From: Escherichia coli | GTDB lineage: Bacteria; Pseudomonadota; Gammaproteobacteria; Enterobacterales; Enterobacteriaceae | DNA: 64,000 bases | Assembly (NCBI RefSeq): GCF_030013595.1 | Contig: NZ_CP122768.1 | Strand: one strand, 5' to 3' | Position numbers and translations under genes: made by a program | Shown: piece after piece, positions 4,537-44,296 of the stretch | How the letters are laid out: each line of letters opens with the position of its first letter | How positions within the stretch are numbered: the stretch's first letter is position 1 | Notes under the pieces: generated by a model | The model's input: only the letters and a program-made list of their open reading frames with translations | What the model was told of the DNA's origin: nothing | Databases searched by the model: none

Positions 4537-5439
<903 letters not shown>

Positions 5440-6948: not shown

Positions 6949-7384
6949 GTTTCATCCTGTCCATTATGATGCACACGGTCGCCTGCGTTTACCCTTGCTC
7001 TTCTGGCTTGTGCTATTGCTTCAGGCGCGAACCTGGGTGCTGTTTGTCATTGCCGGTGCGTCGCGCGAGCAGGGTACTGCGCTGCTAAATCTGTTTTATC
7101 CCGATCACGATAATTTCTGGCTGGGGTTGATTCCCGGCATTCCGGCGGTGCTGGCGTTTTTGCTGAGTGGTCGGCGGGCTTCATTTCCCCGTATCTGGCA
7201 TGTGCTCTATTTTCTGTTGCTGTTGGCGCAGGTGGTTTTACTTTGCTGGCAACCGTGGCTGTGGCTGAACGGTGAATCCGTTAGCGGTATCGGGCTGGCG
7301 CTGGTAGTGGCGGATATTGTGGCGTTAATCTGGCTGCTGACCAATCGACGTTTACGCGCTTGTTTTAATGAAGAAAAAGAATAA
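6935..7384 (+). CDS. yfeZ: inner membrane protein YfeZ
   Basis: 149 aa from ATG 6935 ([12 protein letters not shown]...); several hydrophobic segments; overlaps ypeA 3' end. Confidence 0.85.
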
Positions 7385-27205: not shown

Positions 27206-29230
<2,025 letters not shown>

Positions 29231-31499: not shown

Positions 31500-32264
31500 T
31501 CAGAAATTAAATTTGATGGAGTAGATTATTGCATCCTGGTAAAAATCTTCGCCCAGTTTGTCATCCGCATAACGATACTGAATCCCTGTGGTGATGTGTG
31601 AAGTTGCATTCCACCAAAGTGCGACGGCACCGTTCAGACCTTCTTTGCCGCCATTACCTGCCGCGTAGGTGGCATCACGATCAAACTCGTACTCGTTCCA
31701 GTTGGTGAGGGTGAATTTCTCATTGCCCAGCATAAAGCTGTAACCTGCAACCCAACCGGCTACATAGCCGTTGTCGCCAGTGTAATAGGTTTGATCTGTA
31801 TAACGCTTAGCAAAGAACGGTTTGAACCACCAACCGCTGCCGGTGAAATTGTAGCCGATCCCGTAAAGGAACATATCGTCATGGAAATTCACACGATTCG
31901 CAGAACCGTAGGTGCCATACGCATGCAAGTAGAGATTAAATCCGGTGTCACCCAGGTAAATACGGTTGGTATTTTTAAATGTATAACGCTGCTCGCTACC
32001 CGGTTTATCATGACGATCATTATAAAAGTTTTCCCAGTCGAAGAACCCGTACATTTCTCCCCAACTAAAGTTAGCGCCGCCTTCCAGTTCCAGATATCCA
32101 AAATCATCTTTGTGTGATTTGGTCGACGATTTCTCAGTGGTTCTGCTAGTCCAGTCAAGATAATGAATACCTATATCAGCAAAACCGCCTTTAAATTCTG
32201 CATGGGATACTGCTGGTATCGCCAATACAGAAGAGAGTGTCAGAGTAAAAAGATGTTTTTTCAT
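31500..32264 (-). CDS. yfeN: putative outer membrane protein YfeN
   Basis: 254-aa ORF; signal peptide MKKHLFTLTLSSVLAIPAVSHA; aromatic-rich with C-terminal ...YSIKFNF typical of beta-barrels. Confidence 0.88.
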   Translation of the reverse strand: MKKHLFTLTLSSVLAIPAVSHAEFKGGFADIGIHYLDWTSRTTEKSSTKSHKDDFGYLELEGGANFSWGEMYGFFDWENFYNDRHDKPGSEQRYTFKNTNRIYLGDTGFNLYLHAYGTYGSANRVNFHDDMFLYGIGYNFTGSGWWFKPFFAKRYTDQTYYTGDNGYVAGWVAGYSFMLGNEKFTLTNWNEYEFDRDATYAAGNGGKEGLNGAVALWWNATSHITTGIQYRYADDKLGEDFYQDAIIYSIKFNF

Positions 32265-39280: not shown

Positions 39281-41470
39281 ATGTTTGTGGAGCATAACCT
39301 GATAAAAAATATCAAGATATTCACACTAGCGTTTACGCTCACCGTGGTACTTATTCAGCTATCCCGTTTTATTTCGCCACTTGCCATTATCCATTCCAGT
39401 TATATCTTTCTGGCGTGGATGCCACTGTGCGTAATGCTGTCAATCTTGTTTATCTTTGGCTGGCGCGGTGTCGTTCCCGTTTTATGCGGGATGTTTTGCA
39501 CCAATCTGTGGAACTTTCATCTCTCTTTTTTACAGACTGCGGTCATGCTCGGCAGCCAGACGTTTGTCGTGTTGTGTGCCTGCGCAATATTACGCTGGCA
39601 GCTGGGGACGCGTTGGCGTTATGGATTGACCAGCCGATATGTCTGGCAACGTCTTTTCTGGCTTGGTTTGGTGACGCCTATCGGCATCAAATGCAGCATG
39701 TATCTTGTGGGGAGCTTTTTTGATTTCCCGCTAAAGATATCCACCTTTTTCGGCGATGCGGATGCCATTTTCACAGTCGTTGATTTACTAAGCCTTTTCA
39801 CCGCTGTGCTGATTTACAACATGCTTTTCTACTATCTCACTCGCATGATTGTAAGTCCCCACTTTGCGCAGATATTGTGGCGCAGGGATATCGCTCCGTC
39901 GTTGGGCAAAGAGAAACGCGCATTTACCTTAAGCTGGCTGGCAGCGTTAAGCGTGCTGCTACTTCTGCTGTGCACACCGTATGAAAATGACTTTATTGCC
40001 GGTTACCTGGTGCCCGTTTTCTTCATTATCTTCACCCTCGGGGTCGGTAAGCTCCGCTATCCGTTTTTAAATCTCACCTGGGCTGTTTCAACGCTTTGCC
40101 TTCTGAATTACAACCAGAACTTTTTGCAAGGGGTGGAAACCGAATATTCGCTGGCATTTATTCTCGCGGTGCTAATTTCCTTTAGCGTTTGCCTGCTCTA
40201 TATGGTGCGCATTTATCATCGCAGTGAATGGCTTAATCGCCGCTGGCATTTGCAGGCGCTGACCGATCCGTTAACGCTCCTACCCAACTTTCGTGCGTTA
40301 GAACAAGCGCCGGAGCAAGAGGCGGGCAAGAGTTTTTGCTGCCTGCGCATTGATAATCTTGAGTTTATGAGTCGTCATTACGGCTTAATGATGCGCGTTC
40401 ACTGTATCCGATCAATTTACCGTACGCTGCTGCCGTTGATGCAGGAAAACGAAAAGTTGTATCAATTGCCGGGTAGTGAACTGCTGTTAGTGCTGAGTGG
40501 ACCGGAAACGGAAGGGCGACTCCAGCATATGGTTAACATCCTGAATAGTCGGCAAATTCACTGGAACAATACCGGGCTGGATATGGGCTATGGTGCTGCC
40601 TGGGGGCGTTTTGATGGAAATCAGGAAACCCTGCAACCCTTGTTGGGGCAGTTAAGCTGGCTGGCGGAGCAATCCTGCGCACATCATCATGTGCTGGCGC
40701 TGGATAGCAGAGAGGAGATGGTTTCCGGGCAGACCACTAAACAGGTGCTATTGCTGAATACCATTCGCACGGCGTTAGATCAGGGGGATTTGCTGCTCTA
40801 CGCCCAGCCAATTCGCAACAAAGAGGGTGAAGGTTATGATGAGATCCTCGCGCGACTGAAATATGACGGCGGCATTATGACCCCGGATAAGTTTCTGCCC
40901 CTTATTGCTCAGTTTAACCTTAGCGCGCGTTTTGATTTGCAAGTGCTGGAATCCTTGTTGAAGTGGCTGACAACACACCCTTGCGACAAAAAAGGTCCGC
41001 GCTTTTCAGTCAATTTAATGCCGCTCACGCTGCTGCAAAAGAATATTGCCGGGCGGATTATTCGTCTGTTTAAGCGTTATCACATCTCCCCGCAGGCGGT
41101 CATTCTTGAGATCACCGAGGAGCAGGCGTTTTCTAACGCAGAAAGCAGCATGTACAACATCGAGCAACTGCATAAGTTTGGTTTCCGGATTGCGATTGAT
41201 GACTTTGGCACCGGCTATGCCAACTACGAACGGTTAAAGCGTTTGCAGGCTGATATCATCAAAATTGATGGCGTCTTTGTGAAAGATATTGTCACGAATA
41301 CGCTGGATGCGATGATTGTGAGATCAATTACCGATCTGGCGAAAGCGAAGTCATTGAGTGTGGTCGCGGAGTTTGTCGAGACGCAACAGCAGCAGGCGCT
41401 ATTGCATAAGCTCGGGGTGCAATATCTGCAAGGGTATTTGATTGGTCGCCCGCAGCCATTAGCTGATTAA
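39281..41470 (+). CDS. pdeA: c-di-GMP phosphodiesterase (membrane sensor domain plus degenerate GGDEF plus EAL)
   Basis: 729 aa from ATG 39281 (MFVEHNLIKNIK...); multi-TM N-terminus; EAL-domain segment ...VILEITEEQAFS... Confidence 0.88.
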   Translation: MFVEHNLIKNIKIFTLAFTLTVVLIQLSRFISPLAIIHSSYIFLAWMPLCVMLSILFIFGWRGVVPVLCGMFCTNLWNFHLSFLQTAVMLGSQTFVVLCACAILRWQLGTRWRYGLTSRYVWQRLFWLGLVTPIGIKCSMYLVGSFFDFPLKISTFFGDADAIFTVVDLLSLFTAVLIYNMLFYYLTRMIVSPHFAQILWRRDIAPSLGKEKRAFTLSWLAALSVLLLLLCTPYENDFIAGYLVPVFFIIFTLGVGKLRYPFLNLTWAVSTLCLLNYNQNFLQGVETEYSLAFILAVLISFSVCLLYMVRIYHRSEWLNRRWHLQALTDPLTLLPNFRALEQAPEQEAGKSFCCLRIDNLEFMSRHYGLMMRVHCIRSIYRTLLPLMQENEKLYQLPGSELLLVLSGPETEGRLQHMVNILNSRQIHWNNTGLDMGYGAAWGRFDGNQETLQPLLGQLSWLAEQSCAHHHVLALDSREEMVSGQTTKQVLLLNTIRTALDQGDLLLYAQPIRNKEGEGYDEILARLKYDGGIMTPDKFLPLIAQFNLSARFDLQVLESLLKWLTTHPCDKKGPRFSVNLMPLTLLQKNIAGRIIRLFKRYHISPQAVILEITEEQAFSNAESSMYNIEQLHKFGFRIAIDDFGTGYANYERLKRLQADIIKIDGVFVKDIVTNTLDAMIVRSITDLAKAKSLSVVAEFVETQQQQALLHKLGVQYLQGYLIGRPQPLAD

Positions 41471-41480
41471 CAGGCGTAAA

Positions 41481-41512
41481 AAAACCGGGGAATTATCCCC
41501 GGCTTTTTTATG
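41481..41512. terminator. bidirectional intrinsic terminator between convergent pdeA and nupC
   Basis: AAAAAAACCGGGGAATTATCCCCGGCTTTTTT. Confidence 0.7.
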
Positions 41513-41519
41513 TATGGTC

Positions 41520-42722
41520 TTACAGCACCAGTGCTGCGATTGACGCAGACAGCACACTCACCAGGGTAGAGCCGTAAACCAGTTTCAGACCGAAGCGAGA
41601 AACCACGTTACCTTGCTCTTCATTCAGGCCTTTAACTGCACCTGCGATAATCCCGATTGAAGAGAAGTTAGCGAAGGAAACCAGGAACACAGAGATGATG
41701 CCTTCAGCACGCGGAGAAAGTGTAGAGGCAATTTTCTGCAGATCCATCATCGCAACGAACTCGTTGGAAACCAGTTTGGTCGCCATGATACTGCCCACTT
41801 GCAGTGCTTCACTGGAAGGAACACCCATCACCCATGCAATCGGATAGAAGATGTAGCCCAGGATGCCCTGGAAGGAGATGCTGTAGCCAAACCAGCCAGT
41901 CACGGTGGCAAACAGTGCGTTCAGCGCGGCGATCAGGGCGATAAAGCCGATCAGCATCGCGGCAACGATAATGGCGACTTTGAAACCTGCCAGAATGTAT
42001 TCACCCAGCATTTCGAAGAAGCTCTGACCTTCGTGTAGGTTGGACATCTGAATGTTTTCTTCACTGGCATCAACACGGTAAGGGTTGATCAGCGACAGCA
42101 CGATAAAGGTGCTGAACATGTTCAGTACCAGTGCCGCAACGACGTATTTCGGTTCCAGCATGGTCATGTATGCACCAACGATGGACATCGACACGGTGGA
42201 CATCGCCGTGGCAGCCATGGTGTACATGCGATTGCGGGAGATTTTGCCGAGGATATCTTTATAGGCAATAAAGTTTTCAGACTGACCCAGAATCAGGGAG
42301 CTGACGGCGTTAAAGGATTCCAGTTTGCCCATGCCGTTGACTTTGGAGAGCAGGAAACCAATTGCGCGGATAATCACCGGCAACACGCGAATGTGCTGGA
42401 GAATACCGATCAGTGCAGAGATAAAGACAATTGGGCACAGCACTTTCAGGAAGAAGAATGCCAGGCCTTGATCATTCATGCTACCAAAGACGAAGTTAGT
42501 CCCTTCGTTGGCAAATCCGAGCAGTTTTTCGAACATTTCGGAGAAGCCTTTCACGAAGCCTAAACCAACGTCGGAGTTCAGGAAGAACCACGCCAGTAAC
42601 ACTTCGATAACAAGCAGTTGAATAACATAACGGATACGAATTTTTTTGCGGTCGCTGCTTACCAGCAGTGCGAGAATCGCAACAACGGCAAGTGCCAGTA
42701 CAAAATGAAGGACGCGGTCCAT
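41520..42722 (-). CDS. nupC: concentrative nucleoside:H+ symporter NupC
   Basis: 400 aa from ATG 42720-42722 ([20 protein letters not shown]...); polytopic CNT family. Confidence 0.92.
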
Positions 42723-42987
42723 ATTTGCTCCAAATATGAGGCAGGTTAAATTTCCGTGCACATTCTATGTAACATGGTTAAGGAAAACGAGATCTGACAC
42801 ACACTATAATGACGTCCTGTGACAAGCTTCAAAAATAGTGAGCTGTCATACATTTCTGCTATGTTGTGTATGGAAGCTGAAAGTTATGTAAATGTGCTAA
42901 CATTAAACATAACCATAACATTCAAGTCATCAATCTTTTCGTAGTCATAATCCTGGTCTATCAGAGAAATCACCACAATCCATTTAA

Positions 42988-43046
42988 ATGAATTTGATAA
43001 TCATTCTCGTTTGGCATAGCATGAAACATAGCAAAGGCTATGTTTT
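42988..43046 (+). promoter_or_regulatory. mntH operator region: Fur-box-like and MntR-box-like sites
   Basis: AATGAATTTGATAATCATTCTC (Fur-like, about 42988-43009) and palindrome AAACATAGCAAAGGCTATGTTT (43024-43045) just upstream of mntH ATG 43058. Confidence 0.55.
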
Positions 43047-43048
43047 AG

Positions 43049-44296
<1,248 letters not shown>

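Follow-up and report, generated by a model that had tools for sequence, protein, structure and literature searches.

The short region upstream of mntH in Escherichia coli raises the question of which of its closely packed blocks are regulatory sites, which proteins they serve, and whether they lie where they could act on transcription of the gene. A first-pass annotation of this DNA, made from the letters alone, had pointed to an MntR-type palindrome just before the gene and to an element resembling a Fur box further upstream. Our reading, to which we give a probability of about 0.93, is that the site is the control region of E. coli mntH, in which a single sigma-70-type promoter is combined with two independent metal-dependent repressor sites. 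All positions refer to the window, by which we mean the whole 64-kb stretch of DNA that was analysed.

The mntH control system is already known and is textbook material. Patzer and Hantke reportedly described it in 2001 (J Bacteriol 183:4806) under the title "Dual repression by Fe2+-Fur and Mn2+-MntR of the mntH gene", and Kehres et al., to go by the title of their 2002 work (J Bacteriol 184:3151), are said to have found mntH of Salmonella enterica Typhimurium to be regulated by H2O2, Fe2+ and Mn2+. Repression by both Fe-Fur and Mn-MntR is stated in the literature (PMC4361602 and PMC11647493 among the sources), which bears out the Mn- and Fe-responsive control that the first-pass annotation had invoked, and both sites are found here on the core promoter.

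Identity of the locus

Of 5426 complete E. coli genomes, 5424 contain a match of at least 95% identity to the 601 bp around the site, and the annotation of the matched records at that place names nupC, mntH and, in some, "protein YpeD" (RefSeq). The downstream gene is mntH, at 43058–44296 on the plus strand, which encodes an Nramp-family Mn2+/H+ symporter of 412 amino acids according to the list of open reading frames and the RefSeq annotation of matching E. coli records. Its Shine-Dalgarno sequence, AGAGG, was read off the sequence at 43047–43051 of the same strand, and the GG at 43050–43051 is invariant in an alignment of 81 sequences.

From 42930 to 43075 the window is identical base for base to K-12 MG1655, with which it shares the locus, a regulatory region without any difference and the gene order nupC and mntH. 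Published coordinates were transferred to the window using the relation that the NC_000913.3 position equals 2,555,764 minus the window position. Coordinates in NC_000913.2 are 1978 lower than those in NC_000913.3 at the mntH locus, an offset that agrees with the site placed by Chen et al. (2007) at −56 from the start codon. The window strain differs from MG1655 beyond nupC, where MG1655 carries IS186C (2514273–2515617) and the window strain is without that copy; at 41470–41520 nupC adjoins pdeA (yfeA) directly, so the window is not MG1655 despite the identical mntH promoter.

The 59-bp element itself (42988–43046) matches 5234 of the 5426 E. coli genomes, 3334 of the matching records being identical, 1046 at 95–99% and 853 at 90–95% identity. 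In two divergent E. coli strains that were inspected the changes cluster at 43009–43016, in the promoter spacer, and leave the MntR operator untouched; one of the two carries ATTATC, which is nearer the Fur consensus. In S. enterica subsp. arizonae and diarizonae the MntR palindrome is identical to that of E. coli, and the TTGATAATCATT core, the −10 hexamer and the CTATCA block are the same. Salmonella differs in having ATTATC in place of ATTCTC, AATAAA in the spacer and other flanks. The Fur, MntR and promoter blocks are near-invariant across about 25 enterobacterial genera, represented by 80 orthologous promoters.

Promoter and transcription start

A promoter scan found a sole sigma-70-like match on the mntH strand, TTGATA and TAGCAT separated by 17 bp. 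The −35 hexamer TTGATA (42994–42999) lies within the Fur box and is invariant in the 81 sequences, while the −10 hexamer TAGCAT (43017–43022) has its T1, A2 and T6 invariant in the same set. The transcription start was taken from SMRT-Cappable-seq, which gives a single start for b2392, at 2512734 on the reverse strand (PMC6131387, supplement file 4). Mapped to the window this is the A at 43030 on the plus strand, 8 nt past the −10 hexamer, leaving a 5′ UTR of 28 nt. The Cappable-seq supplement (PMC4782308) lists no transcription start for the mntH locus.

With the start at 43030 both operators fall on the core promoter, which is the position needed for repression. The Fur array contains the −35 hexamer and the spacer, and the MntR site covers −6 to +16, with the start itself inside the left arm of the palindrome. 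The geometry suggests how each repressor might act. Fe2+-Fur bound to overlapping boxes at about 42984–43014 would cover the −35 hexamer and most of the spacer and would exclude RNA polymerase sterically, while Mn2+-MntR, a DtxR-family dimer bound to the 9-4-9 inverted repeat at 43024–43045, would block the formation of an open complex or escape from the promoter. One metal by itself would then be enough to lower synthesis of the Mn2+ importer.

The MntR operator

The palindrome AAACATAGCAAAGGCTATGTTT lies at exactly 43024–43045 and consists of two perfect 9-bp arms around a non-symmetric 4-bp spacer, AAACATAGC-AAAG-GCTATGTTT, with an ATAGC-N4-GCTAT core. As the first-pass annotation had noted, 12 nt separate it from the mntH start, the ATG being at 43058. 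The pattern AAACATAGC-N4-GCTATGTTT, searched with up to three mismatches, matches once in 64 kb, where 0.04 matches would be expected by chance.

A perfect 9-bp inverted repeat near the ribosome-binding site might also be thought to work in RNA, as a 5′-UTR hairpin or attenuator of mntH translation or termination and not as a DNA operator. With the start inside the left arm all but 3 nt of that arm stay out of the transcript, so the hairpin cannot form. The 5′ UTR together with the early coding region folds at −8.7 kcal/mol (z = +0.95), no better than shuffled sequence, and it matches no Rfam family. The palindrome also occurs far upstream of mntP and across the start of rybA, which fits recognition as DNA. 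On the position of the start, the unstructured 5′ UTR and the lack of an Rfam match we rejected action at the RNA level, which we consider hardly credible.

For the DNA operator, the DNA near other described MntR targets in K-12 was compared. Variants of the ATAGC-N4-GCTAT core are present at dps, at rybA/mntS and, twice, at mntP; they have three or four mismatches to the 18 specified bases of the mntH site. The core is common to these sites, and perfect arms are found at mntH only. The three genes are stated MntR targets (PMC11647493, PMC4361602). The dps site lies 46–67 bp upstream of the gene. The mntS site (7055–7076 of K-12 piece L003) straddles the transcript start, the rybA 5′ end being at 7065, and this position fits repression. 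The two mntP sites lie about 360–420 bp upstream of the ATG, where MntR is an activator (PMC11647493), whereas the mntH site is on the core promoter.

An MntR matrix was trained on only these four sites (dps, mntS and the two of mntP), with the mntH site left out. It gives the mntH palindrome 28.98 bits, against 13.15 bits for the runner-up in the window and a best score of 17.8 bits in 100 first-order-Markov random sequences of 64 kb. A site scoring at least 26.9 bits is present in all 80 orthologous mntH promoters, 9–13 nt before the ATG in 79 of them. In the alignment of 81 sequences AAACATAGCA and AGGCTAT are invariant, and the left arm and GCTAT are kept throughout. The right arm reads GCTATATTT in most genera, and the fully symmetric GCTATGTTT is found in Escherichia, Salmonella and some Citrobacter and Kluyvera.

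A literature search for the operator string found ATAGCAAAGGCTAT printed nowhere among the papers retrieved, the 8-mer matches listed being to unrelated papers. The assignment of 43024–43045 to MntR, as a predicted operator, is supported by the sharing of the motif across the regulon, by conservation and by secondary statements. That this evidence is indirect is what could be cited in favour of a regulator other than MntR. Against this, the motif recurs at exactly the described MntR regulon (mntS, mntP and dps), no other site in the window has a comparable score, and it is MntR that the primary work, in its titles and statements, names as the manganese repressor of mntH. We therefore regard an operator for a different regulator as extremely unlikely and keep MntR as the putative ligand of the palindrome.

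Two further sequences were considered as auxiliary MntR sites and rejected. GCTATGTT at 42858–42865 has no partner arm (0 of 9 positions at the correct spacing), is outside the top ten of the MntR matrix and lies inside the conserved nupC control module. AAACATAACC at 42905–42914 is not conserved.

The Fur box

The AT-rich element GATAATCATTCTC is present at 42996–43008, and the Fur-box likeness proposed for it in the first-pass annotation stands. Its distance from the palindrome had been put at about 20 bp and has to be corrected, the gap being 15 bp (28 bp from start to start). The best 19-bp register is GAATTTGATAATCATTCTC at 42990–43008, which shares 15 of 19 positions with the classical Fur consensus GATAATGATAATCATTATC. 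Two other sites in the window do as well, making three where 0.1 would be expected. The sequence TGATAATCATTCTCG (42995–43009) is the sole match in the window, at up to one mismatch, to the ChIP-exo consensus TGAnAATnATTcTCA, with 12 of 13 positions agreeing and 0.12 matches expected.

A first Fur matrix, trained on narrow ChIP-exo peak windows, was dropped, three of its six training sites agreeing with the consensus at only 8–11 of 19 positions. The matrix used here was trained on 11 intergenic sites from nine other Fur-repressed promoters (fepA-fes, fepD-entS, fepB-entC, fhuA, cirA, fecA, fecI, fiu and exbB). Its top score in the window, 18.0 bits, goes to 42990–43008 and falls inside the range of the training sites (10.9–20.9 bits); 3.7% of random 64-kb sequences attain this score. 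A second register shifted by 6 bp, GATAATCATTCTCGTTTGG at 42996–43014, scores 12.9 bits and is the one that scores best in most other genera, GATAATCATTCTCATTTTG being the top Fur match in 33 of the 80 orthologous promoters; a register at 42984 scores 10.7 bits. Registers 6 bp apart, at 42984, 42990 and 42996, form an overlapping array as expected of Fur. Of the 80 orthologous promoters, 76 contain a Fur site of at least 13.7 bits.

Published binding data place Fur on the same bases. In the ChIP-exo study of Gao et al. 2023 (PMC10164565) the iron-replete peak P75, with mntH as target, covers NC_000913.2 2510767–2510798. Applying the +1978 offset and then subtracting from 2555764 puts this region of in vivo occupancy at 42988–43019. 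Chen et al. 2007 list a Fur cluster at mntH of two sites over 25 bp, with 19.9 bits at −56, so the comparison with footprint-type data that had been proposed as a check comes out in favour of the Fur site. Gao et al. 2023 (PMC10164565) also count mntH among the 36 genes of the core Fur regulon and give log2 fold changes of 1.16–3.30 on fur deletion in nine E. coli strains (RNA-seq).

The element contains the −35 hexamer, so conservation alone cannot separate a promoter function from a Fur function, and the consensus match is not unique in the window. On these grounds the AT-rich element might be only the −35 or UP part of the promoter, with no functional Fur site and with iron acting on mntH indirectly. 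The ChIP-exo peak at 42988–43019 under iron-replete conditions and the derepression of mntH in fur deletions of nine strains are against this, as are the first rank given to the site by an independent Fur matrix and a conservation that reaches well past the hexamer, through ATCATTCTC. A purely promoter function for the element is highly improbable, and we retain the Fur box.

In its overlapping 19-bp boxes on the core promoter mntH resembles the classical Fur-repressed promoters, and its 18.0 bits fall among their scores. Its derepression on fur deletion is modest (log2 1.2–3.3) compared with that of fepA (6–10), which is consistent with a second repressor still being active.

The Fur matrix gives its second and third scores in the window to 32159–32177 (15.6 bits) and 27263–27281 (13.7 bits), both at 15 of 19 positions of the consensus. 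The former overlaps the listed open reading frames 31500–32264 and 31889–32158, both on the minus strand. Gao et al. (2023) report a W3110 Fur peak labelled "yfeN, intergenic" some 12 kb away from the one at mntH; allowing for IS186 it lands roughly 170–190 bp from 32159, a correspondence that is tentative.

The mntP upstream region of K-12 contains a further Fur-like box, CCAAATGAAAATCGTTATC (5377–5395 of piece L004; 14 of 19), about 300 bp upstream of the gene and close to its two MntR sites. It corresponds to the yebN Fur cluster of Chen et al. (2007), which has 22.8 bits at −300. With a Fur-like box next to MntR sites at mntP, both manganese transporter genes have paired Fur and MntR sites.

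An OxyR-type block upstream of the promoter

OxyR sites follow the pattern ATAG-N7-CTAT-N7-ATAG-N7-CTAT. A candidate OxyR activator site, ATAA-N7-CTAT-N7-ATCA-N7-CCAT, lies at 42947–42983, upstream of the −35 hexamer and separated from it by 10 bp. It agrees with the pattern at 12 of 16 core positions, a weak match that ties for best with two other positions in the window. In the 81 sequences the conserved columns of this block coincide with the positions of the tetranucleotides, and CTATCAGAGAAATCA is conserved in at least 80% of sequences at most of its positions.

OxyR is stated to induce mntH (PMC4361602), and a literature search found no OxyR ChIP-exo paper mentioning the gene. It is likely that 42947–42983 is the OxyR site carrying the known induction by H2O2, with OxyR predicted to contact this block. 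The three-input logic of OxyR, Fur and MntR is the same in Salmonella Typhimurium mntH, going by the title of Kehres et al. and by PMC4361602.

When a 20-position form of the OxyR pattern was used, the best match in the window was at 31785–31821 (ATAGGTTTGATCTGTATAACGCTTAGCAAAGAACGGT), with 15 of 20 positions.

The small open reading frame ypeD

The same DNA is annotated as a gene. ypeD, a small open reading frame of 29 codons at 42988–43077 on the plus strand (RefSeq annotation of K-12 and of some other records; Stringer et al., bioRxiv 10.1101/2021.07.02.450978), begins at 42988, crosses the Fur box, the −35 and −10 hexamers, the transcription start and the MntR operator, and terminates 20 nt inside mntH. 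If the block were kept for encoding YpeD, its likeness to operators would be secondary. This possibility has the RefSeq annotation behind it, as well as the work of Stringer et al. (bioRxiv 10.1101/2021.07.02.450978), in which ypeD comes from ribosome profiling, was detected by western blot according to the naming rule, and has homologues in Salmonella and Citrobacter koseri.

The orthologous loci do not preserve such a protein. The ypeD ATG is present in 72 of the 81 sequences, but it lies within the flank of the Fur box, has no Shine-Dalgarno sequence and is 42 nt upstream of the only mapped transcription start. The open reading frame at this position encodes 11 amino acids in 40 of 81 sequences, 23 in 12 and 29 in only 12, with 24, 25 and other lengths also found, a variation that comes from a frame shift caused by a 1-bp indel in the promoter spacer. 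UPEC132-type E. coli has TAA at codon 9. The variable columns 43009, 43013, 43015, 43042 and 43046 fall at ypeD codon positions 1 or 2 and not 3, and the shared N-terminus MNLIIIL is the translated Fur box. Neither the frame nor the length of ypeD is preserved across orthologous loci, and its variation is not concentrated at third codon positions. On the varying length and the codon-9 stop in UPEC132-type E. coli we rejected protein constraint as the source of conservation; that the block is kept for YpeD seems to us very unlikely. The conservation of ypeD appears to come from constraint on the operators as DNA and not from the protein.

It is conceivable, and in our judgement improbable, that ypeD is translated from a separate, unmapped upstream or leaderless transcript crossing both operators, the transcription or translation of which would be coupled to mntH expression, in which case Fur and MntR would also act as roadblocks.

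PGAP calls at this position vary by strain and comprise "YpeD", a 19-codon "hypothetical protein" from the internal ATG at 43021, or no call.

The adjacent nupC control region

A second strongly conserved intergenic module, the nupC control region, occupies 42712–42900. The published transcription starts of nupC, on the minus strand, are at 42896 and 42755/42756, and two CRP-like sites were recognised, by eye only, at 42818–42833 (TGTGAcaagctTCAAA) and 42838–42853 (AGTGAgctgtcATACA). The copy of GCTATGTT at 42858–42865, which is not an MntR site, sits in this module. For the start of nupC the list of open reading frames gives GTG 42761 (413 aa) and RefSeq gives ATG 42722 (400 aa, MDRVLH...); the RefSeq start agrees with the conserved Shine-Dalgarno sequence and with the proximal transcription start at 42755/42756.

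The Fur ChIP-exo peak P76 of Gao et al. (2023), at NC_000913.2 2511044–2511073 and with no assigned target, maps to 42713–42742, at the nupC start. A perfect 8-3-8 palindrome, CATATTTG-CTC-CAAATATG, lies at 42720–42738 over the nupC start codon and Shine-Dalgarno sequence; it is highly conserved and unlike a Fur box, and could be a translation-initiation hairpin or the site of another protein.

Discussion

The evidence for a doubly repressed mntH promoter agrees from several directions. Position weight matrices trained on other loci, the check suggested with the first-pass annotation, rank the mntH Fur and MntR sites first in the window, at 18.0 and 29.0 bits respectively; the latter score, from the matrix that left mntH out, supports the reading of the palindrome as an MntR-type operator. 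Together with the ChIP-exo peak, the mapped transcription start and the conservation across 80 promoters, the matrices uphold the view that the regulatory sites are intact and that the locus is a good positive control. Features that the first-pass annotation had not mentioned are the OxyR-type block at 42947–42983, the placing of the −35 hexamer inside the Fur box, and ypeD starting at 42988. In Salmonella mntH expression is still sigma-S-dependent with fur and mntR both deleted, so control of the gene extends beyond Fur and MntR.

The mntH site serves as a calibration point, its operator and Fur box having been recognised from raw sequence alone. For annotators, the ypeD call overlaps the mntH operators, and its apparent conservation is explained by constraint at the level of DNA; the coupling of a ypeD transcript to mntH, if true, would be an extra layer on a textbook promoter. 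For E. coli itself, mntH is the classic promoter that reads iron via Fur, manganese via MntR and peroxide via OxyR.
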